Source: a virus. Taken from it: a stretch of DNA of 64,000 nt. This document shows positions 4,068 through 46,803 of this stretch, piece after piece; position 1 is the stretch's first letter, and each line of letters begins with the position of its first letter. The stretch covers positions 4,261 through 68,260 of the IMG/VR virus record IMGVR_UViG_3300032287_001952; one strand, written 5' to 3'. The position numbers were made by a program, and so were the translations under genes. The notes beneath the pieces are model-generated. The model did no database searches. It was given only the letters and a program-made list of their open reading frames with translations, and was not told the DNA's origin.

Positions 4068-5329
4068 ATTGTTTCAATGTCTCCGTCGTTTAGGGTTTCT
4101 ATGTTTTTGAGTTTTGATCTGACTTTCTTCATTACTTGTTCCTCAATTGAGTCAGCCGCAAAAATGATCTTTTGTACAGCTTTAGATTTTGCTCCCGCCC
4201 TGTGAATTCTCCCGAGTGCTTGTTTTAAATCAACGGCAGAGTAGGTGGGACATATGAGCGAGCTCCGAGGGCGTCCCAATGTATCGTGAAGCGATACCCC
4301 TACTCCGCCACTTTGTATCTGGCATACCATCACATGGTTTGCGTCACATTGAAAGTCTGCAATCATCCCCTCTCGCTGGTCGTCTGGTTGCCCTCCCCAG
4401 ATATAACAAGCGTCTTTAAACTTTGTAAGTAAAGTGTCGATCGTGTTTCTAAAGTTGCAGAAGATAACTACGCTTCTCTCCTCGTCTAGCAAAGCCTCCG
4501 CCAAATCGACCAGCACGGGAACTCGGATAAGTTCAGCCTCTTGTCTTGCCCTCAATATTTCCGTCATTGGATGAGGTCGATCCGCGGCCTTGCTGGCTTG
4601 TAGTTCTGCAAGCTTTGCTTGAAGGTCGTCATAAACCCCTTGCACGTTCCCGCAATCATAGGCTTCCGCAAACACTTCGTTATCTGGGAAAGCGTCTCCG
4701 AGTTCCGATATACGTATTCTGCTAGCTTTTTCCCCCATCGATTTGTGAATGTTTGCTAGCTTTGATTTGCCACCAAAATAAGCCAACGCACCCCACGGGG
4801 CTTTCTTCACTCCGTTTTTGATACACCACGGAAAGAAGTCTACGTATTTGTGGAGCCCTAGAACAAACCCAGTCGACCGCATATCTAGCGGGTTCGATGC
4901 GAATGTGGCTGACAACATAAGCGTATAGAACGGACGGCTCGTCACTAGCATTTTCCCATTAAGGCTGTTTGCTCCCTTGCATTTGTGTACTTCGTCCCAG
5001 ATGAGCAAAGTATCTTGCGGTATGTTTGACCATACCCACGCACCTTTCACGAAATCACCAAAACCACTGCTACCAGCTCTTAGCTTTTCGTAATTCAAAA
5101 TAAACATCGGCTCAACTCCAGCCTTCTTGCACCAATCTTTCCAGCTTGGGATAACGGCTTTTGGGCAAATGATGCCTACTGGTTTTCCTAGAGTTTTTGC
5201 AATCCACACTGCTTTAGCCGTCTTACCAGTGCCCGTATCGCTCCAATCTGCTGCGACTCGATGTTCACGCAAACTCTTCAACATATTTTCTGCTGAAGGC
5301 TTCTGCCAATCGTACAAACTAAAACTCAT
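4064..5329 (-). CDS. SNF2-like SF2 helicase
   Basis: DTGTGKT, DEVH, SAT, SGGVGVSL and QALGRIHRAG motifs. Confidence 0.92.
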   Translation of the reverse strand: MSFSLYDWQKPSAENMLKSLREHRVAADWSDTGTGKTAKAVWIAKTLGKPVGIICPKAVIPSWKDWCKKAGVEPMFILNYEKLRAGSSGFGDFVKGAWVWSNIPQDTLLIWDEVHKCKGANSLNGKMLVTSRPFYTLMLSATFASNPLDMRSTGFVLGLHKYVDFFPWCIKNGVKKAPWGALAYFGGKSKLANIHKSMGEKASRIRISELGDAFPDNEVFAEAYDCGNVQGVYDDLQAKLAELQASKAADRPHPMTEILRARQEAELIRVPVLVDLAEALLDEERSVVIFCNFRNTIDTLLTKFKDACYIWGGQPDDQREGMIADFQCDANHVMVCQIQSGGVGVSLHDTLGRPRSSLICPTYSAVDLKQALGRIHRAGAKSKAVQKIIFAADSIEEQVMKKVRSKLKNIETLNDGDIETI

Positions 5330-33768: not shown

Positions 33769-36700
33769 ATGGCTCAGACGATCCCAACGCCTGGTAGTGA
33801 CGCAGTAGTAGCTTCTCAACCCTTGCCTGCTGGTGAATTCCCAGGCCTTGTAGATGCTCTAGGGCTTACTGAACAGACGACAAAACTTTCCGAGGGCTTC
33901 TCTGGTTTGGGTAGCCTAAAGCTTTCCGAGCCAATGACGGATTCTGAGAAGGCTCTTGAGAATCCTTTCTTAAAACTACCTAAAGCCAATCCTAAAGATT
34001 TCATTGATACTGTTAGAAAGGATTGGGAAATCGGTCAAGAGGGCGTCAATATTGATATGGCCACTGACGATTTCGCAACGCAGGTTTTAACGTCTGGTCA
34101 GCCGGGAGACTACAGCCAGTTACAAAACAAGCGTAAGGCTTTGGCGAAATCACAGTACTTTAACCAAGCCGACAATCTGGCTAGCCGAGCTGTCCACGGA
34201 ACTGTGCAGATGTTGCCACCGATGGCTCAAGGACAATTGTCTGGTATTGAGAAGGGTGTTGAACGTGGGATGCAGATGGGACTTATTGGGTCTTCTGGGT
34301 TTATTGCTGGGCCAGAGGTTGGTGCACCGATGGTTACTGCGTTTACGGGTGTCGGAGTTGCTGGTGGTAACCTAGAGGGCTCTTTCAACTACTGGACAAA
34401 GCAAGGCCGAGGAGCGTCGTTTGCGGAGTTGGTAGACGCTGGTGTGAACCAAGTCACTGCCGCAAATATCGCTCAATTTGTTGGCCCAGTTTACGCGGCT
34501 ATTGAATATGCTCAGGTTGGAAAACTCTTGGATGTTGTAGGGGGTAAAAAACTTAAGGGTGGTTTATTGCGTGGGGCAATGCGACAACTTGCGAAGGTTG
34601 TCCCCGCTGGTGCTAAAGTTGCCGCAGAGAAAGTAGCTCAAGTTTCGGCTAGGCCACTTGTAAGGGGTGCTGTCGACGTTGCTGGTGATATATTGGTACA
34701 AGCTGGTGAAGAAGCGGCTCAAGGTGCCGTGTCTCAAGCTGGTACTGAATACGGAAAGACGCAACAACAGCTGATTGCCCAAGGTGCTCGTGATGGGGCT
34801 ATGGAAGTGCTCGCAAACCTAGACCTACCAGAAGCTTCTAAACAAGTACTGTCCCGTGGTTTTGACGAGTTTGCAAGTAGCATTGGGCCGATGGCGGTTC
34901 TTACTGGTGGTGCAAAGGGGACGAACTTCCTTCGTAAAGCCTCATGGGATGGGTTTGTATCCCTAGCGAACGGGGACATCCAGAAAGCCGCAGATCAGCG
35001 TGATGCTGTGGCTAAAGCGGGAGCTCCTCAGACTGCACAAGCTTTGGCTGAAACTGTCTTAACGGAGCCAAGTTCGGTTAAGCCGACAGCAGCGACTGTC
35101 ACACCGACAGCTCCAGTGGTTGCCCCTATCGACGAGCCAGCTCTTGACGCTGAACTCGAAGCCGCTGGTCAAGCACCAGTAGAAGTCGAACAGCCCGAAG
35201 CTCCACAGCCTACTGTGGGTCTCCCTGGTGATGAGCTTGGTGCCAGGATCTTCTCGAACATTCGTTCCCGTAAGCCGATTGCTAAAGCTGATCTTGACCA
35301 GGTTGGTGGATTCTCGTTGTCTTCCGATTGGAAGCTGAACGAAGAGACGGGTAACTTCGAATACCAAGGACCAGTTTATGAAAGAAAAGAAGCTCCGCAA
35401 GTTTCAGTCGCAAAAGCAGAAGCCGCCACAATCGAACAGCCAAAAGTCAAAGCTCCCAAAGCTCAAGCCGTCGCTCCTATCGAAGCCGTTAAGCCAGAGC
35501 CTACTCAAAAAGGTGCAGAAGCTATACCTACTTCATTAGGTGTAAAAGTTTTTCAAGCTCCAGACGGAACTTGGGGCTATCAATTTGATTTTCCAAGTTG
35601 GCGAACAACAGAAGAAGGTATCGAATCAGTAAATAAATCTTTTAATCAAAATCAAGGGATCGCCACAAAAGAAGAAGCTTTAGCTTTAGCAACTGAAGGT
35701 AGAAAAAAAGCGATGGCTGGCACAATAAAAGAAGACGAGAGAGTAGCCACAGCACTAGAAAAACGGGGTGATGTACAAAAAGATGATTTACGGAGGGCTA
35801 GAAAATATCGCAAGGCCGCTGAAGAAGGCCGTAAACTATACGAAAAAGAATACCCAGAAGGAACTGCACCGAAGGTCGAAGCTCCTAAAGTTGAAGCACC
35901 GAAGGTTGAGGCTCCTAAAAACCTAGAACAGTTTATAAATAACTTGCCAACATTTAGTCCCGCTATGAAAAGCGGAGAGAGAGATAAACAACGTTTTAGG
36001 CAAGCTTTGGGCCTGTTGAAAAGCAAAAAGACAATTACCAAAGCAGTTCTCCAAAAAGAACTTAATCTGGGCTCGAATTATGCGGATTGGTTAATGGAAC
36101 AATTAACTCTCTCTGGCGCGGTAAGCGAGCAGATATCTGGTAAAGCACCAAAGGTTGAGGCTCCTAAAGTCAAACAACCAGCTCTTCCGAGGTGGGAAGA
36201 AGTCCAGAAGAACAAGGATCAGATCAAGTTCCTCAAGTCCGTTTTCAAGAAGGCAAACGCCAAGCTTACCAAAGAACAGCAAGTAGCCCCCAAGGTTGGC
36301 TGGAAGCGGAAGGATTTCTACTCGGCTCTGGAACGGATGTATGGTCAGCTCACTCAGCTTGAGTTCAAGCAACCTGAGCAAGTTGCACCACCAGCACCGA
36401 AGGTTGGCGAAGCCCAGAAGCCAACTGCGATCAACGAGGCCGAGCAACGCAGAAAGCTCAAGCTTGCTAACCTGCTAAAGGTATTCGGAAACAAGGATCT
36501 CGATGGTGACCAAACTCTCTTCCGTGATATCGCTATGGCTCAAGCTCGAAAAGTTGCATCGCAGATTGCCACACAATTTCAAAACATAACTGACCCAGAC
36601 GGAGAGATCTACAATGGGTTGATTTCGGCTATTGCCACCCGCCTTAAAAAATCTTTTGATAACAAGACACCAGTATTCTTCAACGAAGCTGGTGAGCCGA

Positions 36701-39700
36701 TTGCTATCAATGACGAGTCAGTAAAGAAGTGGCTGATGAAAGCCGCAGATCGTGCTGGACGAGACGCCGCAAGACGCCAATCCGCACAGAGAGAAATCAA
36801 TATCGAGTTTGGTGGCAAGCCAGCCGAAGGAGTTGTTACTCAACCTGAAGCCGCCAAGGAAGAGGCCAAGCCAGAGGGTATGCAAGTCAAAGAGGTTGCT
36901 CCAGAAGTCAAGGAAGAGCCCCGTGGAATTCGAGCAATTCGAGAAGCCGCTCAAGCTATTCGGGAACAGAGCAGCCCAGAAGCAAAGCTTGTTTTGGATT
37001 GGATCGTGTCTCAGTTGGTTGGGGAAGACTCGGCGTTGGGCAAGATCAAGACCTACAAGGAACTCGCAACCTATCTGTCCAAGGTCGCTAAACGGACGAT
37101 CAGCGACAAACGAGTTGGGTTGACTGTAAACGATGTTGTTAAGAAGCTGGCTGACAATCTTTCGGAGATCGGAATTAAGGTAAACGTAGAAGCCCTTGAG
37201 ATGGCACTTAGCCCCGAGGGTCAGAAAGCCAAGGAACGTCTTGCGGCTGAGGAAGCCAAGGCGAAAGCCTCTCGTGACGAGAGAGTGGCTAAGGCGAACC
37301 TATCCGATCGCGCTAGAAATCTTCGTTCTGGTTATGCAGTAAAAGAGAGGCTTGTGGATGCGGTTGCATCAGCAACCCCAGAAAACAGAGCGAGAATTCA
37401 AAACGAAGTCATATCGTTGGCAGAAGAAGATCTTCTAGCCGATGACGACATCAACAACAGACTCGATAACATCGAGAAAGGATTACCGAATGAAAAGCCA
37501 GCAATTGGACAACCTGTTTCCCGGCGTAGACGCCGAGGCGTTAAACAAGCTAAAGAAGGCGAAGTTCTCGGCGGAACTGGAGAAGGCGTCGAAGGTGCAC
37601 GGGGGACTACCGGCCCTGTCGCAACTGCTGAAGGACAACCCCAACCTGGGGCACGAGGAGCTGAACCAGTCAGTCCACGACCTAGCGGAGCTGGACAGCA
37701 AGTGGGCGGAAAACAGCAAACAACTACGAGAAATGTTTCCGTTGACGTAAAGTTATCTGAAAACAATAGAAGCCCTGCGGTAAAGACTTTGGTCGAAACT
37801 GCCACTTCAAACGGAGTTCCAGTCACATTACAAGATTCTCCAGAAAGTGGATCGGCTGTTGGTGTAGACACCAATCAAGTCGAAGGACAAGAAGTACCGA
37901 TCATCCGAGTTAACCAGAACAAGCTTAAAGAAGTTCGTCGAACACTTGGGCCAAAGGCTTTTGCCGAATGGTCTTGGAGAGCTATCAACCAAGAGATTAT
38001 CCACTTTAGGCATCTCAAGCTTCTTGAGCGTCTGGCCAAAGAGGAAGGTACTGATTACAAGAGCTACCTCAAGAAAGAAGCCAAGAGGATCGTACAGATC
38101 ATCAAGAGGCAGCGTGGTCTTCGCAAGAGGATCGAGGCTATCTACAACAACGGCGAGAAGATGGATGACTTCAACCTTGCGTTCGAGTTCACCCGAATGC
38201 TTGTCGAAGAGAAGATGATGGGCGGAATTACAGAGTCCTCCTATATGGACATCGCCAAGGTTCTTAACTCTGTGGATGCCGAAGGTCGAGGATTTATCTT
38301 TAGGTTTATGGAGCTTGTTCGGGATTTGATGTACGGATTGACTGGGCGTACCGCAGCGGAGACCAAGTTCCTTCGTGCAACGGCTGACGCTATCATCAGC
38401 GAGCAACGCAAAGTTATGCGGGACTTATACAACCCGACTGAAAAACTCCCCGTACAAGTAAATTTCTATACACCAAAGGAAAAGGTTATCGTTGGTTCAG
38501 CCGCTGACCGCAAAGCGTCTGAAGAGGAGATCAAACAAGATAGTGGCTTGAACCGAGCCAGTATGGCTTTCCTACGTGAATACGCCAGAGAGCTCGGAAT
38601 CAAGGAGCCTATGGGTCAGCGGAAGATGGAGGTTCGTGACGAAAAGACTGGTAAGATTTCAATTAAGAAACTCTCGTTCCCAGTTTGGAAGAAGCCCGAC
38701 TACGCAAAGGCGATCAAAGAGAAGCTCAAGGAACTCGGTAAGAAGCCAAAGGAACTTGGTGCCGCAATGCCTATGCGGTTCAAGACCGAGTATGCCTTCC
38801 AGCAGATCGATCGATCATTTGGGGCTAAGAGGGGAATCTTCAAGGGTCTGACTGTCGATAACAACGATACGCTTCCCTGGGAGAATCTGAAAGCGAAGAT
38901 CCTTAAGGGGACGAGTAAGGCTGAAGCCAATTGGGTTCTTCCGACAATGGAAGCTCTTGTCCGAAACGGACGTGTCAACGTTGATATGGCTGTTGAGGCG
39001 ATGCAAGCTTTGGCGAAAAACAAGATAACCGTAAAAAAACTTAGTGAAGAAACAACAGCTATTCAAAATCAACCAAAAGAAATTCAAGCTTTCATTAGGC
39101 TAGAAGAAGCTAAGAACCAAATTAGGCATGAAGCTGAATCGCAATTTACAGACGTAGAAGAAGCTATCAGAATTGCTGGAAGTTTACTGTATTTAGATAC
39201 CTACGACATATTTTCTAAAAATAAATTGCTAATGGATGATTACCGCTATCGCCAAACAAAGCTTGAAATAGAGGAAACACTTAAAAATGGTCTAAATAAT
39301 ACTTCTTTTGACGAACGAGAAATAAAAAAGCTTGGGGATAAGTTAGCAAACGTCTACGCATCTTTTGCAAAAGATCTTTATAATTTGGATAGTAGAGATT
39401 ATCTTTCATCGTTTGGGTTTGGGAGATCACAAATAGAGGCTGTGGATCAGGCATTTTCTATCGTAAGCAATCTTAAAAATGCAGACGAGCAACAGAAAGT
39501 TTTTGCAAGAATAGGTTTCTATATAGCAAGATCGGGAGGGATAGAGGTATCTGACTTGGGATTAGACCAAAGAGCATCCGCAAGATATAAATTTGTGAAC
39601 CCAAAGCCTTTTTCGGAAATGGAGGATGTGCGGGAAATTTTGGTTAAGACCCCAATTGGTGCTGTAGCTAAAGCAAAATCACACTTCGAAGATAAAGATG

Positions 39701-42700
39701 TTGTTGGTTTTGGGAGAATGTACACAACAAAACAAGGTGATAAAACTGTAACATTTTTATTCGAGGCACAAACGGATGCGTCAACGTCACCCTTAAACGA
39801 GATGGCAGACGAAAACCATCCAATGACCGCTCTGGATTATACCCCGGTATTTGAAGCAGAACTTGAAGACTTGAAAAACGCTTTGCAAGAAATCGTCGGA
39901 GAAAAACGACCTATCTATATGGACGAGGTTGGGAATCTTGCGTACAACGGAAATTTCAAGTCAATCACACCAACCTCAGTTACATCGAAATACACAATTG
40001 CTAGACATAAAGAAGGTAATCTTTACGAAGTTAATGGGGATCTAGGTTTTCATATTCTCGAAAAGTCTAGAACAGATAAAAATTTGGCAAATAGGGTAAG
40101 GCCATATTTAAAAGATAGCCAAACAGCTTCCATGATTGAGTGGGATAGGATGTTAACAGAAGCCGCTCCTCTGATAAGTGCATACGAATCACTCGTATTA
40201 AAGAACGCTATTGCGGATGCCATATCTAAAAATCACGATGCTATTGCAATTACCGACGATGGAACGGCAGCAATGACAGAGGGTCATCCGCAAATAAATG
40301 ACGGCATGCGGGCTCACTATGGGGTTCGAAATGGGAGTCTTCATAACTTAGCTAAAAAGCTTACTGGAGATACTGGAACTCCATTTAATGACGGATCTTC
40401 GATTTATGTGTATGAGCAGGAACAAGCCGATAAACTCGAAACACCATTCGAAGTTTACAGATTCCCGAAGAAAGAGGTAACTGGGGTATCCTATAGCCTG
40501 GATAAAGTGAAGGCTCTCGGGGATGCAAGCGATGTTTACAATATCCTCGGAGCCGCATTGCCAACCGATCGGCCTTACTGGCTGAAAGATGACGGAGAGG
40601 TTCTTGATGTCGAAGAGAATGCTCTCGTCGATATGAACTCAATCGGTAGCCACTCCGAAGCCGCAGTTCAGTTCCTCCAGGAGAACGATCCAGAGAACCC
40701 TTTCTTGATGGAGTGGTCTCTTTTAGATCCGTTAGAAAAGAAGGATCGTCAGCAGTTGCCAGTCCAAGAGATGTTCAACAGAGGTTGGCTCCGTGTTATC
40801 GGTGACGGGTTTAACTTGTTCTTTGAGGGCAATCCGAACAAGACCCAGTTAGACAAGCTGTTCGAGGCCGCAATCGAGGATGAGGTTAAGCTGATTCACG
40901 ACAAGACCGGATTGTCGGGTAGGCCAAAATCTAATCTACTATATGAGCCACCGCTCGAGGACGAACTTAACGCCGCAATGCCTCGTCGGGGCTTCTCTTC
41001 TAGTGAGCCTAGATTCAGTAAGTCTTGGAAAGCTCTTCCAGATTCCGTAGCTGGTTTGACTGAAGTATACAAAATGAAGCGTGGAACTAACGATGTCCGC
41101 CTATACCGAGATGAGATGGGCGATACATTCGTAGTCAAGCGTGGGCAATCGCAGGAGCAATTTGAAAATGAAGTAGCCGCCGACAATGTTTATCGAATTC
41201 TAAACTACCCAGTGCCCCCTTCGAGGCTGATCACAGATGAGAATGGTGAAACAGCCAAGATCGCCAATTACGTGGCTGGTCCGATACTCGCAGATTTCCA
41301 AGAGAATATGGAAGAAGCAGACCCAGATGCTGTTAAAACAGTGTTTGAGGAACTTGGTGATGGGCTTTTGATTGACGCCTTCTTGTTTAACTATGACGTC
41401 CTAGGGGAAGGTCTGGACAACATTGTTGTCGCTCACGAAGAAATTACAGAAGAAGACGGGCTGGCATTCCCAGAGCCGTTGATCAAATACACGGCATACA
41501 GAATCGATAATGGCGGAACTCTGGACACTCGGGCAATGGGTCTCAAGAGAGACGAACCATTCTTCTACGACTCGTTCTCTAGGCTGGCCGACAAATACCC
41601 GCAGTTTAATCTCACAGCCACGGATCTTGTGGCACAGCTTTCCGATATCATACTCAACAGCGATGCTATTCTAAATGCAATCCCAGCCAGACTACGACCT
41701 ATGATGGCTCAAAGGATCCAATGGATGGCAGATCAGCTAAGTGCGGTGGACACAATCCCTTCAGCAATCGGGTACTCTGACGAGGAGGTCACAGCACATT
41801 TCGCCAAATTGGCTAAGGAGATGGACTCCATTAAGGTTGTTCGGAACGCTCAAGGAGAGCTGATAAACGAAAAGACTGGTGAGCCTTCTAGGATTTATCT
41901 AATCGACACAAACGGAAAAACAATTGGCTTTATCCCGAAGTCCGAATTTAGGTACAAGCTGGAGAGAACTAAAGCTTTCAAGATGTGGTTTGGGGATTGG
42001 GAGAATGCACCAGAAGCTTTGGGGACAAGCAAGATGCTTGATGAGGCTGGTGAGCCCATGATGATGTATCACGGGACAAACTGGACTACGAAAGAGTCGA
42101 TGTACATGTTTAAGGACGACATCGATAAAGAAACACAAGGGTTGAATCTATACCGCAGACGTTTCTCGCAAGGCAACCTATTCCGAGGAACCTGGACTTC
42201 AACAAGCCGTAAGTTCTCCGAGGACTGGGCAAACGAAACCTCGGCTGGGGAATACGCTCAACAGGTTGTCATACCAGTATACGTAAAGAGCACAAACCCA
42301 TTTGACCCACGTAACTCAGATCACAACGCCAAGTTGGTAAACTACCTTGAAGAGAAGTACTCTGCTGATTCTGGGGTCAACGCCTTTATCCCGACTCGTG
42401 ATATGCGTGTGGCTATGGAGTTCGGATTCTACGACTGGTCTTACTTTGAAACGACTCGCCCAGAGTACCCATCCATGGGTTCAGACTTTGAAGAGATGGA
42501 AGAAGACTCTCGTCGTAAAGAGTTCTTTGCGAAACATCCATATCCAGTTCTTGAAGCAATTATTAATCTTGGGTTCGACGGACTATGGGTTAGGGAAAAA
42601 GGTCTTGGGTATTCTGGGTCTCTCGAAAGTGGCCCAAAGAATTTAGTTCAAGAACTGGAGATCATTCGTAGGAGTGATGACAAGAGCACGGAGAAACAGA

Positions 42701-45700
42701 CGATCCAAAATTTGAAAGAAGATGTCATCGCTTACAATAACAACTCGGTCTGGAATCATTTGTCCTTCCGATCTGACGGCATCAAGTCATCGGCTAATAC
42801 GGGTAAGTTTAAGGCTGATAAACGTAAAAAGTTCAAGCCTTACCAGGAAGCCAAACGTTTTGTAAACTTAGTAACCCGTAATGGTAAGACCCTCTGGAAC
42901 GAGTTCCAGAAGGGTGGTAAGACATTTGCTTCCTACGACTCAGCAGAGAACCTAGTAACTTACGCCTACTCAGATCCGAGTACTCTGGCAAAGGCTGGAA
43001 TCGAGAAGACTGAGATGAAGAACGGGGTTGTGTTCTTTAGTGCTCGGTCGGTTGAGGGTGTGCGTAGCCCAGACCGCAAGCCTACCGATATTCTCGGAGC
43101 CGCGATGCCCCGCCAGTTTGGAGTTCGTATTAGGGATAAGATGCAGGCCGATGCTTACGAGAGGCTTAAGAACTTAACTTACGAGCCGATCCCGGATAGT
43201 ATGGTTCAAGAAGAAGCCGAAGCGTATCTAGAGAAACACGGAATCCGTGGTGCTATGGATGCTACAATTTCCAAGTCTAGTCCGCTCGAGCACGGATCTC
43301 GTGAGCTGTTGGCTCAGATGATTATCCTAAAACTTAACGAGCAGTATAGGAAGACCAAGGACGCAAGAGTTCTAGAAGAGCTGATCGACTACACCGATAC
43401 ATTCTTATCGATCACTTCTGAAGCTGGACGTGCTCTTAGGCAGTTATCTTTCTGGGACAAGCTGTCACCCGAGGGGATGTTGATGCTCTACAAGAAGAAG
43501 CTGGATGAATCAAATCGTGAGACCCGTGACCGATTCAATGAATTTTTTGCGAAGGTAAAGCGTGAGCTATCGACGTTGCCAGCTGGAGCACTGGATCAAG
43601 CCTTGAAGAGTATGGAAGGTTTGCTGGGTAAAGCCGATAAAGCCGCAGAAGAATCTCGTAAGAAGCTTGCTACCAGCAACACTATGACCTTCTGGGAAAA
43701 CTTCTCAAAGCAGATTGGCGATAGCCTTGTCCAGAAATCTCGAGAGCAACTCGATATCGCTGAGGAAGAGCTTGCCCGTACCGCTGGTGGAGAGGCGACG
43801 CCCGAGGGTGAATTGGCTAAGAATAAGGTCAACAACGCAAAGACGATCAACCAGGCAGCTCAAGAAATGAGCCGCAATATCAAGCAGATGTTCCTAGCTC
43901 TTGCCAAAGAACAAGGTAAGAACATTCGCGATCCTCGGGTTATCACGGACGAAGAGTTCGCCAATAAGACAGACGAAGAGATTGCGAAGATTCAGCAAGC
44001 GGAGCGGGACTCTAAGCAAGCACAGAAGTTTACTGATATGTTGGCGAGATGGCCGAAAGCCTTGCAAGCTTGGCAAACGGCGACAGCTGCGATTCGTGCT
44101 CAGACATCCGTCAATCCAGAATTGGCTACTATGTTCCAGAGTTTTCTAGACCTCACTCTTGAGACTCCTTTTACGATGCCACAACTCAAACGATTCTTGT
44201 CTCTGAGAGGCGTTAAACTAGAAGACCTAATTCGTGAGCATTACCAAGAAGGGAAGTTGGCTCAAAACGCATACGATGTAGCAAGAGAGATGGTCGAAAA
44301 AGCGGGTCTTGGGGCATGGGAAGAAGAAATTGGGGTGGACGTAAAAGAGGGCGATAAGTTTTTTGAATACGAAAAGCGTGAAGAGGATATGGCTAAAGAA
44401 GAGCCATCTAAGCGTGCACCAACCAAATCAATGTCTGAGCGTCTTACGCAAGCCCTTGCGTCTCAAATTGAGAAATATGCAGAAGCGGAGACAGAAAAGA
44501 AGCTTAACCGATTGATTGATTCTTACGCTGACAAACGTCTTGAACCATCTCTCAAACGCTTTATGAAGCGTATGGTTCAGTACCAAGCTTTGGGTTTATT
44601 CAGCAACTCCTATGCCTGGAACGAGTTCCAGAAACAAGAAGGACTGGATAAAGTAAAGCCAGAGGTTGTGAATCAGATCCTCGATATTATGGGGAAAGCC
44701 CAGAAGCTTACCGGGTTTAGGAAAGAAGAGGCATACGCCGATGCCCTTTCACTTATCTCTTACCACACGAACACGGGCGTTTGGAACTTCACCAAGTCTT
44801 GGTGGTACTTGAGCATATTGTCGGGCTTCACTACTCAGGTCGCCAATATTGCGGGCAATGCCTACAACACGATGCTGTTGACTATCCCAACAATTGGTAA
44901 GCATCTTGTCGCTGTAACTGTTAACCCAGAGCGGAGTAAGGCAATCGTTAAACAAATGTTTAGGGCAATGTCTCTGTCGCTACAGGATTTTGGATACTTG
45001 CTCACGACTGGTAGGGTTGGAACTCGCAAATCAGATAACCCCTTCTTCTCGCGGGCAAGCACAGATTACTTCGAAGTTATTGCGAAGAATACCCCGTATC
45101 GAGCCGCAAGGATTTCTGCTACCACAGCCGCTATGGTGCGTAGAGTTATGTCGGCAGTTGATATGATGTTTTACAACTTTAACAAAGAAGTTTACCTATT
45201 TGATTCGGCATACAATGCCGCAAAGAAATCTGGGCTGAAGGGGTCCGAGGCTACAGCTAAAGCTCTTGAGGTAACTTTCCGAAGTTCGCAGGCGTTGCAA
45301 AACGCTCTCAACTTAGCTATAGGGGAAGGTTATGTGGTCGAAGGAGAACCTCTCGGGTTCTATAAAGCCTTAACCAAAATAGAATCCCCGAAGGCCAAAC
45401 TTGAACGGGCAAAACAAAAAATAGAGCAATCGATTCGTATCCAAGAGATCATCGACGCAAACGTTACTGGGTCTGCGGAGAGTTCAAGGGTTGCTATTGG
45501 GGCGCAAGTATACGGAGAAGAGCTTACGTATAACGAGGAGCCCAAGGGTTTCTTGGGTGCTGTGCATAGGTCTATCTCTGCCCTTTCGGTTAAGTATGGT
45601 TTGGTATCTGTGCCGATCCCTTTCACAAAGATCGTAGCAAACGTATGGAACCAAGGTCTCGACGCTGCTGGTCTCGGGATTTTTAGGTCTGGGAAGTTAG

Positions 45701-46803
45701 CCCACGGAAAATTGGCTAAAGCTTTCCCATTCCTTAAGGTTCTTGAACGATTCGAGATGAAAGGTCTTAAAGGTTCAGCTGACGAGGTTCAAGCTCAGAA
45801 GGATATGATGTTCGCAAGATCATTTAATGCTTTTGTCGCATTAGGTATTATTACACTCCTCGATCGGGTTCTTTGCGGTCAGTATGAAACTTATGGGTTT
45901 GAACTTTGCATAAACGGTCCTGGTCCTAAAGAGCCAGCACAAAAAGAACTTCTTAAGAATCGCTTAAGCTGGAAACCAAATTCTCTTTTCCTTCGCTTAC
46001 CAGGCATAGGCGGCTTCTATCTTAGTTATATGTTGTCGCCTTTGGCTATTCCGTTGGCTGGTTTCGGATTAATAAAGGATAACGAGATTTATAACTACTA
46101 CGCCAAGAAATCACCAAAGGACGCTTCTCTAGCTATGGCTCATAGACTGTTGACTGTTCCAATGGAGATGAACTTCTTGTCGGGTCTTGGGGATATGTTT
46201 GAAATCTTAAGCCCAAGTAACCCAGAGACCGCTCTTGCTAAAGCCAAGTCATTCCTTTCAAGAATGGGTTCATCAATGCTTGTCCCGAACTTCTTTAGGG
46301 ATGTCGACCAGCTTATTGTGTCTAGCCTGCCGGGTGTGCTTAACCCAAGGACGGCTAGAGAAGACATTATACAAGCAGCATTTATTTCGAATACCCCAAT
46401 CATTCGGCAAATGTACGGAAGTGCTGAGCTTGATATCTTAGGTCAACCAATTGAGATGACTTCACGAGTTGTAAGCGTTGCTGGGAAAGATACTTTGGTT
46501 GATGTACTCATCCAAAAGAATGCTCTCCCGACTGCTCCCAAAAAAGACAAATTGCTTGGTCTTGTCCCAATGGACGATACTCAATACGCACAGTATCGTG
46601 AATACAGAGCAAAACAACTTGGGGAAGATCTTAACACGCCAGAAATGATTGAAACCCTATCTAGAATGGAACCTGGAATGGCTCAGATGTATGTTCAGAA
46701 ATATACCCAGAAAGCTAGCCAATTGGCTAAAGCAAAGATTCTGAGGGGAAGCCCAGAGATACTAAAAGAGGCAAGAGAAACAAAAGCTAAACAGATTAAA
46801 TAG
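33769..46803 (+). CDS. Giant polyvalent ejection protein (4344 aa)
   Basis: Hydrophobic G/A-rich N-terminus with EEAAQ; central effector domains (see findings); helical C-terminus with LSG..T...N..GN and PF.K...N motifs typical of large ejection proteins. Confidence 0.85.
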   Translation: MAQTIPTPGSDAVVASQPLPAGEFPGLVDALGLTEQTTKLSEGFSGLGSLKLSEPMTDSEKALENPFLKLPKANPKDFIDTVRKDWEIGQEGVNIDMATDDFATQVLTSGQPGDYSQLQNKRKALAKSQYFNQADNLASRAVHGTVQMLPPMAQGQLSGIEKGVERGMQMGLIGSSGFIAGPEVGAPMVTAFTGVGVAGGNLEGSFNYWTKQGRGASFAELVDAGVNQVTAANIAQFVGPVYAAIEYAQVGKLLDVVGGKKLKGGLLRGAMRQLAKVVPAGAKVAAEKVAQVSARPLVRGAVDVAGDILVQAGEEAAQGAVSQAGTEYGKTQQQLIAQGARDGAMEVLANLDLPEASKQVLSRGFDEFASSIGPMAVLTGGAKGTNFLRKASWDGFVSLANGDIQKAADQRDAVAKAGAPQTAQALAETVLTEPSSVKPTAATVTPTAPVVAPIDEPALDAELEAAGQAPVEVEQPEAPQPTVGLPGDELGARIFSNIRSRKPIAKADLDQVGGFSLSSDWKLNEETGNFEYQGPVYERKEAPQVSVAKAEAATIEQPKVKAPKAQAVAPIEAVKPEPTQKGAEAIPTSLGVKVFQAPDGTWGYQFDFPSWRTTEEGIESVNKSFNQNQGIATKEEALALATEGRKKAMAGTIKEDERVATALEKRGDVQKDDLRRARKYRKAAEEGRKLYEKEYPEGTAPKVEAPKVEAPKVEAPKNLEQFINNLPTFSPAMKSGERDKQRFRQALGLLKSKKTITKAVLQKELNLGSNYADWLMEQLTLSGAVSEQISGKAPKVEAPKVKQPALPRWEEVQKNKDQIKFLKSVFKKANAKLTKEQQVAPKVGWKRKDFYSALERMYGQLTQLEFKQPEQVAPPAPKVGEAQKPTAINEAEQRRKLKLANLLKVFGNKDLDGDQTLFRDIAMAQARKVASQIATQFQNITDPDGEIYNGLISAIATRLKKSFDNKTPVFFNEAGEPIAINDESVKKWLMKAADRAGRDAARRQSAQREINIEFGGKPAEGVVTQPEAAKEEAKPEGMQVKEVAPEVKEEPRGIRAIREAAQAIREQSSPEAKLVLDWIVSQLVGEDSALGKIKTYKELATYLSKVAKRTISDKRVGLTVNDVVKKLADNLSEIGIKVNVEALEMALSPEGQKAKERLAAEEAKAKASRDERVAKANLSDRARNLRSGYAVKERLVDAVASATPENRARIQNEVISLAEEDLLADDDINNRLDNIEKGLPNEKPAIGQPVSRRRRRGVKQAKEGEVLGGTGEGVEGARGTTGPVATAEGQPQPGARGAEPVSPRPSGAGQQVGGKQQTTTRNVSVDVKLSENNRSPAVKTLVETATSNGVPVTLQDSPESGSAVGVDTNQVEGQEVPIIRVNQNKLKEVRRTLGPKAFAEWSWRAINQEIIHFRHLKLLERLAKEEGTDYKSYLKKEAKRIVQIIKRQRGLRKRIEAIYNNGEKMDDFNLAFEFTRMLVEEKMMGGITESSYMDIAKVLNSVDAEGRGFIFRFMELVRDLMYGLTGRTAAETKFLRATADAIISEQRKVMRDLYNPTEKLPVQVNFYTPKEKVIVGSAADRKASEEEIKQDSGLNRASMAFLREYARELGIKEPMGQRKMEVRDEKTGKISIKKLSFPVWKKPDYAKAIKEKLKELGKKPKELGAAMPMRFKTEYAFQQIDRSFGAKRGIFKGLTVDNNDTLPWENLKAKILKGTSKAEANWVLPTMEALVRNGRVNVDMAVEAMQALAKNKITVKKLSEETTAIQNQPKEIQAFIRLEEAKNQIRHEAESQFTDVEEAIRIAGSLLYLDTYDIFSKNKLLMDDYRYRQTKLEIEETLKNGLNNTSFDEREIKKLGDKLANVYASFAKDLYNLDSRDYLSSFGFGRSQIEAVDQAFSIVSNLKNADEQQKVFARIGFYIARSGGIEVSDLGLDQRASARYKFVNPKPFSEMEDVREILVKTPIGAVAKAKSHFEDKDVVGFGRMYTTKQGDKTVTFLFEAQTDASTSPLNEMADENHPMTALDYTPVFEAELEDLKNALQEIVGEKRPIYMDEVGNLAYNGNFKSITPTSVTSKYTIARHKEGNLYEVNGDLGFHILEKSRTDKNLANRVRPYLKDSQTASMIEWDRMLTEAAPLISAYESLVLKNAIADAISKNHDAIAITDDGTAAMTEGHPQINDGMRAHYGVRNGSLHNLAKKLTGDTGTPFNDGSSIYVYEQEQADKLETPFEVYRFPKKEVTGVSYSLDKVKALGDASDVYNILGAALPTDRPYWLKDDGEVLDVEENALVDMNSIGSHSEAAVQFLQENDPENPFLMEWSLLDPLEKKDRQQLPVQEMFNRGWLRVIGDGFNLFFEGNPNKTQLDKLFEAAIEDEVKLIHDKTGLSGRPKSNLLYEPPLEDELNAAMPRRGFSSSEPRFSKSWKALPDSVAGLTEVYKMKRGTNDVRLYRDEMGDTFVVKRGQSQEQFENEVAADNVYRILNYPVPPSRLITDENGETAKIANYVAGPILADFQENMEEADPDAVKTVFEELGDGLLIDAFLFNYDVLGEGLDNIVVAHEEITEEDGLAFPEPLIKYTAYRIDNGGTLDTRAMGLKRDEPFFYDSFSRLADKYPQFNLTATDLVAQLSDIILNSDAILNAIPARLRPMMAQRIQWMADQLSAVDTIPSAIGYSDEEVTAHFAKLAKEMDSIKVVRNAQGELINEKTGEPSRIYLIDTNGKTIGFIPKSEFRYKLERTKAFKMWFGDWENAPEALGTSKMLDEAGEPMMMYHGTNWTTKESMYMFKDDIDKETQGLNLYRRRFSQGNLFRGTWTSTSRKFSEDWANETSAGEYAQQVVIPVYVKSTNPFDPRNSDHNAKLVNYLEEKYSADSGVNAFIPTRDMRVAMEFGFYDWSYFETTRPEYPSMGSDFEEMEEDSRRKEFFAKHPYPVLEAIINLGFDGLWVREKGLGYSGSLESGPKNLVQELEIIRRSDDKSTEKQTIQNLKEDVIAYNNNSVWNHLSFRSDGIKSSANTGKFKADKRKKFKPYQEAKRFVNLVTRNGKTLWNEFQKGGKTFASYDSAENLVTYAYSDPSTLAKAGIEKTEMKNGVVFFSARSVEGVRSPDRKPTDILGAAMPRQFGVRIRDKMQADAYERLKNLTYEPIPDSMVQEEAEAYLEKHGIRGAMDATISKSSPLEHGSRELLAQMIILKLNEQYRKTKDARVLEELIDYTDTFLSITSEAGRALRQLSFWDKLSPEGMLMLYKKKLDESNRETRDRFNEFFAKVKRELSTLPAGALDQALKSMEGLLGKADKAAEESRKKLATSNTMTFWENFSKQIGDSLVQKSREQLDIAEEELARTAGGEATPEGELAKNKVNNAKTINQAAQEMSRNIKQMFLALAKEQGKNIRDPRVITDEEFANKTDEEIAKIQQAERDSKQAQKFTDMLARWPKALQAWQTATAAIRAQTSVNPELATMFQSFLDLTLETPFTMPQLKRFLSLRGVKLEDLIREHYQEGKLAQNAYDVAREMVEKAGLGAWEEEIGVDVKEGDKFFEYEKREEDMAKEEPSKRAPTKSMSERLTQALASQIEKYAEAETEKKLNRLIDSYADKRLEPSLKRFMKRMVQYQALGLFSNSYAWNEFQKQEGLDKVKPEVVNQILDIMGKAQKLTGFRKEEAYADALSLISYHTNTGVWNFTKSWWYLSILSGFTTQVANIAGNAYNTMLLTIPTIGKHLVAVTVNPERSKAIVKQMFRAMSLSLQDFGYLLTTGRVGTRKSDNPFFSRASTDYFEVIAKNTPYRAARISATTAAMVRRVMSAVDMMFYNFNKEVYLFDSAYNAAKKSGLKGSEATAKALEVTFRSSQALQNALNLAIGEGYVVEGEPLGFYKALTKIESPKAKLERAKQKIEQSIRIQEIIDANVTGSAESSRVAIGAQVYGEELTYNEEPKGFLGAVHRSISALSVKYGLVSVPIPFTKIVANVWNQGLDAAGLGIFRSGKLAHGKLAKAFPFLKVLERFEMKGLKGSADEVQAQKDMMFARSFNAFVALGIITLLDRVLCGQYETYGFELCINGPGPKEPAQKELLKNRLSWKPNSLFLRLPGIGGFYLSYMLSPLAIPLAGFGLIKDNEIYNYYAKKSPKDASLAMAHRLLTVPMEMNFLSGLGDMFEILSPSNPETALAKAKSFLSRMGSSMLVPNFFRDVDQLIVSSLPGVLNPRTAREDIIQAAFISNTPIIRQMYGSAELDILGQPIEMTSRVVSVAGKDTLVDVLIQKNALPTAPKKDKLLGLVPMDDTQYAQYREYRAKQLGEDLNTPEMIETLSRMEPGMAQMYVQKYTQKASQLAKAKILRGSPEILKEARETKAKQIK
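37490..37750 (+). CDS. Nested out-of-frame small protein (86 aa)
   Basis: AAGGA 7 nt upstream of the ATG; amphipathic helical sequence; the host frame becomes G/R/Q/P low-complexity over the same interval. Confidence 0.55.
   Translation: MKSQQLDNLFPGVDAEALNKLKKAKFSAELEKASKVHGGLPALSQLLKDNPNLGHEELNQSVHDLAELDSKWAENSKQLREMFPLT

Follow-up and report, generated by a model that had tools for sequence, protein, structure and literature searches.

Several systems are known in which a small gene lies out of frame within a larger one. In phage lambda, the spanin genes Rz and Rz1 are arranged so that a small gene with its own start is located in the +1 frame wholly within the larger gene, and the two products cooperate. 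In Bacillus subtilis, comS, which encodes a small regulator of 46 amino acids (aa), is nested out of frame in srfAB and uses its own ribosome-binding site on the mRNA of the giant gene. Small viruses also contain overprinted genes, such as B in A and E in D of phiX174. Another overprinted gene is p19 in p22 of tombusviruses (PMC11044054), and overlapping genes of small viruses are reviewed in PMC8227390. In this work, we focus on a 64,000-nucleotide stretch of DNA, referred to as the window, that covers positions 4,261 to 68,260 of the IMG/VR virus record IMGVR_UViG_3300032287_001952. This record is complete (68,260 bp, with direct terminal repeats) and represents an uncultured phage of a freshwater-type clade. 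Within its gene for a giant "polyvalent" protein, comparison with relatives indicates, with a probability of about 90%, that positions 37490-37750 encode a real second protein, read in the +1 frame of the giant gene.

The arrangement resembles that of lambda Rz1 in that the small gene is complete, has its own start and is read in the +1 frame from the same strand as the larger phage gene around it. Rz1 is, however, a lipoprotein with a signal peptide and a lipobox cysteine, whereas the nested protein described here has no cysteine and no signal-like N-terminus (the first residues, MKSQQLDNLFPG, are polar and without a signal peptide). In addition, unlike in Rz, the host gene is a 13-kb polyvalent gene, and the overlap is confined to a linker. 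Like comS in srfAB, the small gene has its own ribosome-binding site and is surrounded by a giant gene of many modules, although comS overlaps an enzymatic module in a bacterial operon rather than a linker in a phage gene, and a relation in sequence is not expected. Features shared with the overprinted genes of small viruses are a structured frame paired with a compositionally biased or disordered one, and a lowered silent-site variability in the host frame. In contrast to those viruses, a tailed-phage genome of 68 kb is under little size pressure, and it is the embedded frame that appears to be under the stronger constraint, with the host frame serving as a tether. Nested overlapping genes are of a known kind; for nesting in a gene of the polyvalent class, no description was found in full-text searches of articles without their supplements, PMC5512222 included.

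The coordinates of the nested ORF (open reading frame) and its surroundings are given in Table 1. The spacer between the Shine-Dalgarno sequence and the ATG is ttaccga (37483-37489), and the encoded peptide, MKSQQLDNLFPGV...REMFPLT, consists of 86 aa, has an isoelectric point (pI) of 5.9 and is rich in L, K, E, A and S. Its frame is +1 relative to the giant ORF, so that position 1 of a nested codon is position 2 of a main-frame codon and position 3 of a nested codon is position 1 of a main-frame codon. The program-made ORF list gives this frame as 37442-37750 (102 aa), beginning at an ATG further upstream; the ATG at 37442 is not kept as a start in relatives. The same type of Shine-Dalgarno sequence is found ahead of other genes in this phage, for example aagaaaggat before 57161. 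A search for sigma-70-like promoters in 36800-38200 gave 0 sites.

For the comparison, a word-indexed search with residues 1050-1650 of the giant protein yielded 13 giant homologues, which are 33-97% identical, and the collection of DNA relatives comprised seven viral loci and nine metagenome loci, five of the latter being new, giving 12 loci. These fall into seven lineages: the window; L009; L002/L005; L004; L006; L003/L007/L008/L012; and L015/L016/L017. Over 270 residues of the main frame around the site, the seven viral loci are 29-47% identical to the window. In 12/12 related loci, the +1 ORF is open and nested within a long main frame, and in public data gene callers have predicted the nested family as a separate small protein 13 times (86-102 aa, 40-95% identity). 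The start signal AGAAAGGA-N7-ATG is identical in 10/10 loci from all seven lineages, including sites that are silent in the main frame, where AAA rather than AAG, GGA rather than GGN, and AAT rather than AAC are invariant. This invariance of the Shine-Dalgarno sequence, spacing and ATG speaks for ribosomes starting internally, in the ordinary way, on the giant gene's mRNA.

In a codon alignment of the seven lineages, variability at the third position of the main frame is 0.25, 0.32 and 0.21 in the three 29-codon bins over residues 1241-1327, and 0.57-0.73 in all 21 flanking bins. Inside the overlap, variability decreases in the order of nested position 3, position 1 and position 2, with the peak falling on main-frame position 1, which is nested position 3, and the dip stops exactly at the nested start and stop. 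As a gene-wide control, the whole giant gene was aligned for five lineages (2,614 ungapped columns) and scanned in segments of thirty codons. Outside the overlap, position 3 was less variable than position 1 in 0/2,465 segments (position 3, 0.652 +/- 0.042, minimum 0.50); inside it, this was the case in 51/51 segments, with a position-3 maximum of 0.40.

Substitution rates calculated by the Nei-Gojobori method lead to the same picture. The ratio of nonsynonymous to synonymous rates (dN/dS) in the nested frame is 0.06-0.58 in 15/16 pairs, the exception being the near-identical pair L002-L005 with 0.90, while the apparent main-frame dN/dS over the same bases is 1.35-5.5 in those 15 pairs. In 15/16 pairs the nested protein is also more identical than the linker encoded by the same bases; between the window and L004, for example, the values are 65% and 41%. 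On a shorter timescale, contigs of close relatives from four public runs were aligned to 36900-38300, where 40 of 97 differences are listed. Among those listed, 29/33 flank variants are silent in the main frame, and 6/7 variants inside the nested ORF are silent in the nested frame and alter the linker; the remaining one leaves the main-frame residue unchanged and replaces K by R in the nested protein. No insertion or deletion occurs among the listed differences.

The listed differences are unevenly spread along this region. The roughly 100 bases just 3' of the nested stop (37751-37848) hold 17 of the 40, nearly all of them silent in the main frame, while 11 lie in 36900-37489 and five in 37849-38300. 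This patch of older divergence may reflect recombination with a boundary where the nested gene ends.

The openness of the two frames was evaluated in both directions. With the main protein fixed and its synonymous codons redrawn from the gene's own usage (20,000 trials), the chance of an open +1 frame is 7% in the window and 9-41% among the six relatives, i.e. P = 0.07-0.41 per lineage. In the reverse test, in which the nested protein of each lineage is fixed and its synonymous codons are redrawn (20,000 trials), the main frame stays open in at most 0.25% of trials (P <= 0.0025) in 7/7 lineages. The third sense frame contains 4-11 stops in each lineage, and the nested frame contains 0 stops across the seven non-redundant lineages. 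Since the length of the +1 ORF is unremarkable by itself, the comparison with relatives is the decisive evidence. Two antisense ORFs over the nested gene, 37398-37874 (158 codons) and 37483-37719 (78 codons) on the minus strand, were also considered as coding candidates and rejected; one antisense frame is open in 5/7 lineages and another in 2/7, with none open in 7/7, and they are probably by-products of a stop-poor, dual-coding stretch.

Because the nested frame is selected for its amino acids and the main frame is kept open beyond chance, the comparison shows true dual coding, in which both frames are maintained by selection. The nested frame bears most of the amino-acid constraint. The main frame is selected mainly for openness and for a length that hardly changes; it reads as a basic tether of low complexity that connects two folded modules. 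The fuller statement, which adds internal initiation to the nested gene, is also highly probable, if slightly less so. In this view, the conserved AGAAAGGA-N7-ATG would serve ribosomes as an independent start on the late mRNA from the giant gene, and the product would be a free, helical and mildly acidic protein of 86 aa, made when and where the giant protein is made.

The initial annotation of this region, which gave the span 37474-37750 and thus began at the Shine-Dalgarno sequence, had read from the letters a Shine-Dalgarno-N7-ATG opening an 86-aa +1 ORF, together with a main frame that turns into a G/R/Q/P linker over the same bases. Both descriptions hold: the former can be read directly in the sequence and the latter agrees with the composition of residues 1241-1327. 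Its inference of dual coding is now supported across seven lineages by openness, start signals, variability, dN/dS and the listed variants. It had also pointed to conservation and dN/dS in homologues as a check, and considered that homologues might have stops in this frame and no ribosome-binding site; the results given above show the opposite.

Table 1. Positions in the window of the nested gene, its start signal, the giant host gene and the modules on either side of the overlap
Feature	Position	Strand	Description
Shine-Dalgarno sequence GAGAAAGGA (core AGAAAGGA)	37474..37482	+	7 nt ahead of the ATG
Nested +1-frame gene (predicted)	37490..37750	+	ATG 37490-37492, 86 codons, TAA 37748-37750; product predicted helical, mildly acidic
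Main-frame linker, codons 1241-1327	37489..37749	+	G/R/P/Q-rich, pI 10.8, same bases as the nested gene
Host gene, giant "polyvalent" protein ORF	33769..46803	+	single ORF of 4,344 codons (aa), within the particle-gene block
Upstream module, residues 900-1240	36466..37488	+	sigma-like two-domain part (~907-1138), then a conserved helical stretch of ~100 aa
Downstream module, residues 1328-1660	37750..38748	+	invariant E1409 and H1412 (xExxH)

The host gene follows genes with matches to virion-structural and tail-fibre families of PHROGs and precedes a tail-lysozyme-like gene. Its product has no PHROGs match at E <= 0.001. In Pfam, the ART-PolyVal domain is found at residues 2758-2860 (E 2.8e-07), and PF18760 is present in 11/13 homologues. 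Because the ART-PolyVal match reaches the curated cut-off (31.8 bits against 31.2), the giant protein counts among the polyvalent proteins as defined by Iyer et al. 2017 (PMC5512222), a class of giant multidomain proteins of phages and plasmids that contain PolyVal-type domains. Over the bases of the nested gene, the main frame reads NEKPAIGQPVSRRRRRG...GGKQQTTTRNVSVDV (residues 1241-1327). Pooled over the seven lineages, this linker consists of G 15%, R 12%, P 12%, E 9%, V 9%, S 9%, A 8% and Q 7%, and its length is almost constant among homologues down to about 30% identity.

The linker joins two modules, each of which had been given a label in the initial annotation. The upstream module (residues 900-1240) has no sequence match in Pfam or the PDB. 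Its AlphaFold2 (AF2) model has a mean pLDDT (predicted local distance difference test) of 81.4, with model residues 112-149 disordered and joining two helical domains. In the VIA structural search, this model reaches Z 6-8 against sigma-factor chains, corresponding to sigma region 2 (model residues ~8-114) and region 4 (~147-239), and the structural matches of the module include SigE/RseA, SigW/RsiW, SigL/RslA and SigK/RskA. The Foldseek rows are likewise dominated by ECF (extracytoplasmic function) sigma factors, but with E >= 0.1. The label "sigma-like" is therefore consistent with the models, though on middling evidence. The following residues, 1139-1240, form a conserved helical stretch that is confidently predicted and has no match.

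The downstream module (residues 1328-1660), labelled "zincin-like", has no Pfam match. E1409 and H1412 are invariant in 14 proteins, and the complete HExxH motif is found in distant lineages only. At 37990-38010 (residues 1408-1412), the window has QEIIH, while L004, L002 and L006 have EExxH and the distant L003 and L015 have THETVH. Since HExxH is incomplete in the clade of the window, the label may denote an inactive or altered site there.

The AF2 model of the nested protein is all-helical, with seven short helices. Invariant positions among 11 aligned members are L9-F10-P11, V62-H63, L65-A66, W72, L79-R80 and F83-P84. Cysteine is absent from these 11 sequences and from 11 further ones. In PHROGs, 4/11 members weakly match phrog_34191, which has no named function (best E 0.0014). 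The profile of the TnpV family (PF14198) has 111 positions, whereas the nested proteins are shorter (86-95 aa); it matches neither the nested proteins (E <= 1) nor any of the six frames of the whole phage genome (E <= 10). Neither blastn of 36900-38300 nor tblastn of the nested peptide gave a match in 50,697 phage records. Free-standing homologues were sought by phmmer among 1.84 billion representatives, by a profile search of proteins of 47-167 aa, and in viral contigs, JGI metagenome contigs, one genome per prokaryote species and the ESM Atlas; each of these searches gave nested copies only or nothing. Two candidates, P0018 (900 aa, E 3.6e-06) and P0019 (456 aa, E 6e-05), are repeat proteins whose matches sum 4-6 stretches, and they were treated as spurious. 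The P0019 repeat contains ...SKYHGGFPAFRKLLGE..., which is similar to SKVHGGLPALSQLLKD of the nested protein. As far as these searches reach, the nested proteins appear to form a new, clade-wide family, known only in nested form.

As for function, the initial annotation had proposed that the product is a co-expressed inhibitor or chaperone, such as an anti-sigma factor or antitoxin, and had suggested co-folding it with each effector domain. As in ECF sigma/anti-sigma pairs, the gene for a small, predicted helical protein follows immediately after a sigma-like two-domain module and would be read from the same mRNA. The differences from the SigE/RseA type are that the nested protein has no HxxxCxxC motif, no Pfam match to an anti-sigma family and no anti-sigma chain in the 50 best fold rows, and that the partner lies in another frame of the same ORF rather than in a separate downstream gene. 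Because the nested protein lacks cysteine, the zinc anti-sigma motif is excluded. The sequence tests for known anti-sigma families are thus negative, and the protein could at most act in the manner of such a factor.

Co-folding was carried out as one complex prediction with three chains, namely residues 900-1240, residues 1328-1660 and the nested protein as partner, with custom alignments. The verdict was "weak support", with a score of 0.44 (runs 0.17, 0.44 and 0.50) against 0.00 for the best of three controls. The runs agree in at least 67% of contacts, the partner pLDDT is at least 66, and the score drops to 0.00 when the upstream chain, the sigma-like and helical segment, is replaced. In calibration, the mark was reached by 58/80 solved complexes and 2/110 mismatched pairs; scores of 0.60 or less include 7 of those 80 solved complexes and both of the passing mismatches, counts that are rough for a three-chain prediction with custom alignments such as this.

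If the interaction is real, the small protein would bind the part of the giant protein that is encoded just upstream, i.e. the sigma-like domain and the helical stretch of 100 aa. It would then hold this module inactive, or fold and escort it until the giant protein is packed into the particle. That the nested protein is a cognate partner of the upstream module is a tentative suggestion from the model, with the odds well against it, and the more specific proposal that it acts on the sigma-like part of the same polyprotein as an anti-sigma-like safety catch or escort is more doubtful still. Because the complex prediction gives "weak support", we put forward the anti-sigma or chaperone idea as a hypothesis. 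Of the initial annotation, the nested dual-coding gene stands; the inhibitor or chaperone part finds no family or fold match.

A number of points weigh against the interpretation given here. The seven lineages represent one phage clade, and the pairwise counts are not independent of each other. The length and openness of the nested ORF are not significant when taken alone, and longer +1 open runs of 127 and 116 codons exist elsewhere in the giant gene, along with others of 101 and 99 codons. Since none of these runs shows the dip at position 3, they look like chance ORFs. In the window, codon usage in the nested frame fits that of the gene worse than either the linker frame or an ordinary non-coding +1 frame does: the mean log RSCU (relative synonymous codon usage) is -0.16, against 0.01 and -0.06 (sd 0.04), respectively. 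The nested and linker frames are about equal in this respect in the other six lineages, and the composition criterion for the older frame points in the opposite direction to codon usage.

To these points are added the results of the family and fold searches. The confidence of the AF2 model of the nested protein is moderate (mean pLDDT 72, from 11 sequences). A Pfam scan of three nested proteins found no family at E <= 1, anti-sigma families included; Foldseek searches of the PDB and BFVD with the nested model gave nothing at E <= 0.001; and in the VIA search the best Z was 4.6, within the noise for helical models, with no anti-sigma chain in the 50 best rows. A search of the ESM Atlas with the nested protein also gave no functional handle. 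As for binding, support at a score such as that of the complex prediction would mislead in most cases, except where the guess had been a likely one from the start. The translation of the nested ORF is argued from sequence comparison.

Among other explanations, the one that competes most seriously concerns the function of the product rather than the existence of the gene: the nested gene may be real, and its product may act elsewhere, on a host target or in another phage process, the tolerant linker of a late-expressed gene being merely a convenient site, so that no binding to the giant protein is involved. We give this explanation about even odds. It agrees with the lack of a recognisable anti-sigma, antitoxin or chaperone family or fold and with a complex score that amounts to "weak support" only, and other nested phage genes behave in this way; phiX174 E within D, for example, acts independently of its host gene. 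On the other hand, the contrast between 0.44 and 0.00 in the controls, lost with replacement of the upstream chain, is a weak pointer to interaction, and the family is found solely nested in the giant gene in the phage, viral, bacterial and metagenome collections searched. Programmed frameshifting, by contrast, would replace the free protein by a trans-frame product, in which a +1 shift on A-AAG-G of AGAAAGGA joins the ~1,237 N-terminal residues to ~91 residues of the nested frame. The invariant AGAAAGGA could in principle be a shift site or stimulator, and no lineage has a +1-frame stop across it; in L015, the closest such stop on the 5' side lies directly before AGA. Nevertheless, we consider this improbable: frameshifting needs neither the ATG nor the 7-nt spacing, which are invariant in 10/10 loci with the silent T of AAT included; the motif is of the Shine-Dalgarno type of other genes in the phage; no prfB-type stop or rare codon comes next; RNA structure over the region is ordinary (z = -0.30); and gene callers place the protein start at the same ATG.

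Less probable again are the explanations that dispense with a second protein or with the first. The conserved stretch might be a nucleic-acid element, such as an RNA structure or a packaging or regulatory signal, or the ORF might be a chance product of a stop-poor linker, as the 7-41% of resamplings with an open +1 frame and the elevated local G+C content (0.52-0.54) would allow. Neither version accounts for variability that has the codon periodicity of the nested frame and a dip that ends at the nested start and stop, for the low nested dN/dS and the better conservation of the nested protein than of the linker, or for the 6/7 listed variants that are silent in the nested frame; the RNA fold is also not unusual. 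These are slim possibilities at best. Finally, a sequencing or assembly artefact, or a compensating pair of frameshifts, could have made the nested frame the true main frame and the linker an error, since the nested frame resembles a normal protein and the main frame resembles an out-of-frame sequence. The main frame is, however, open in 12/12 loci and in 13/13 homologous giant proteins with hardly any change in length, far beyond chance, and no indels are listed over 36900-38300 in the contigs of the four runs. When the nested peptide was compared as a candidate ancestral main frame with the 13 giant proteins by blastp, the best E was 1.3; because it matches none of them, the nested frame is not the true main frame displaced by a frameshift pair. 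An error of this kind is thus scarcely credible, and a nested gene that is translated from its own start is the explanation that we prefer.

Apart from those of very small viruses, long same-strand overlaps for which comparison gives clean support are rare, and they escape annotation pipelines; in this family, the nested gene is missing from the annotations of the giant genes and appears sporadically only, as an orphan "hypothetical protein". The locus shows that the stronger constraint can lie on an embedded frame, with the host frame persisting as a tether, and nested genes may have a preferred niche in the linkers of giant "polyvalent" proteins that are injected. If the product does bind the sigma-like module, the two would be the first sigma-like/antagonist pair to occupy different frames of a single ORF. 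A single late mRNA would then supply both an injected module for taking over transcription and a factor that silences this module, or keeps it foldable, in the producing cell, and the locus would help in studying how phages prevent injected effectors that are made in advance from doing harm during assembly.

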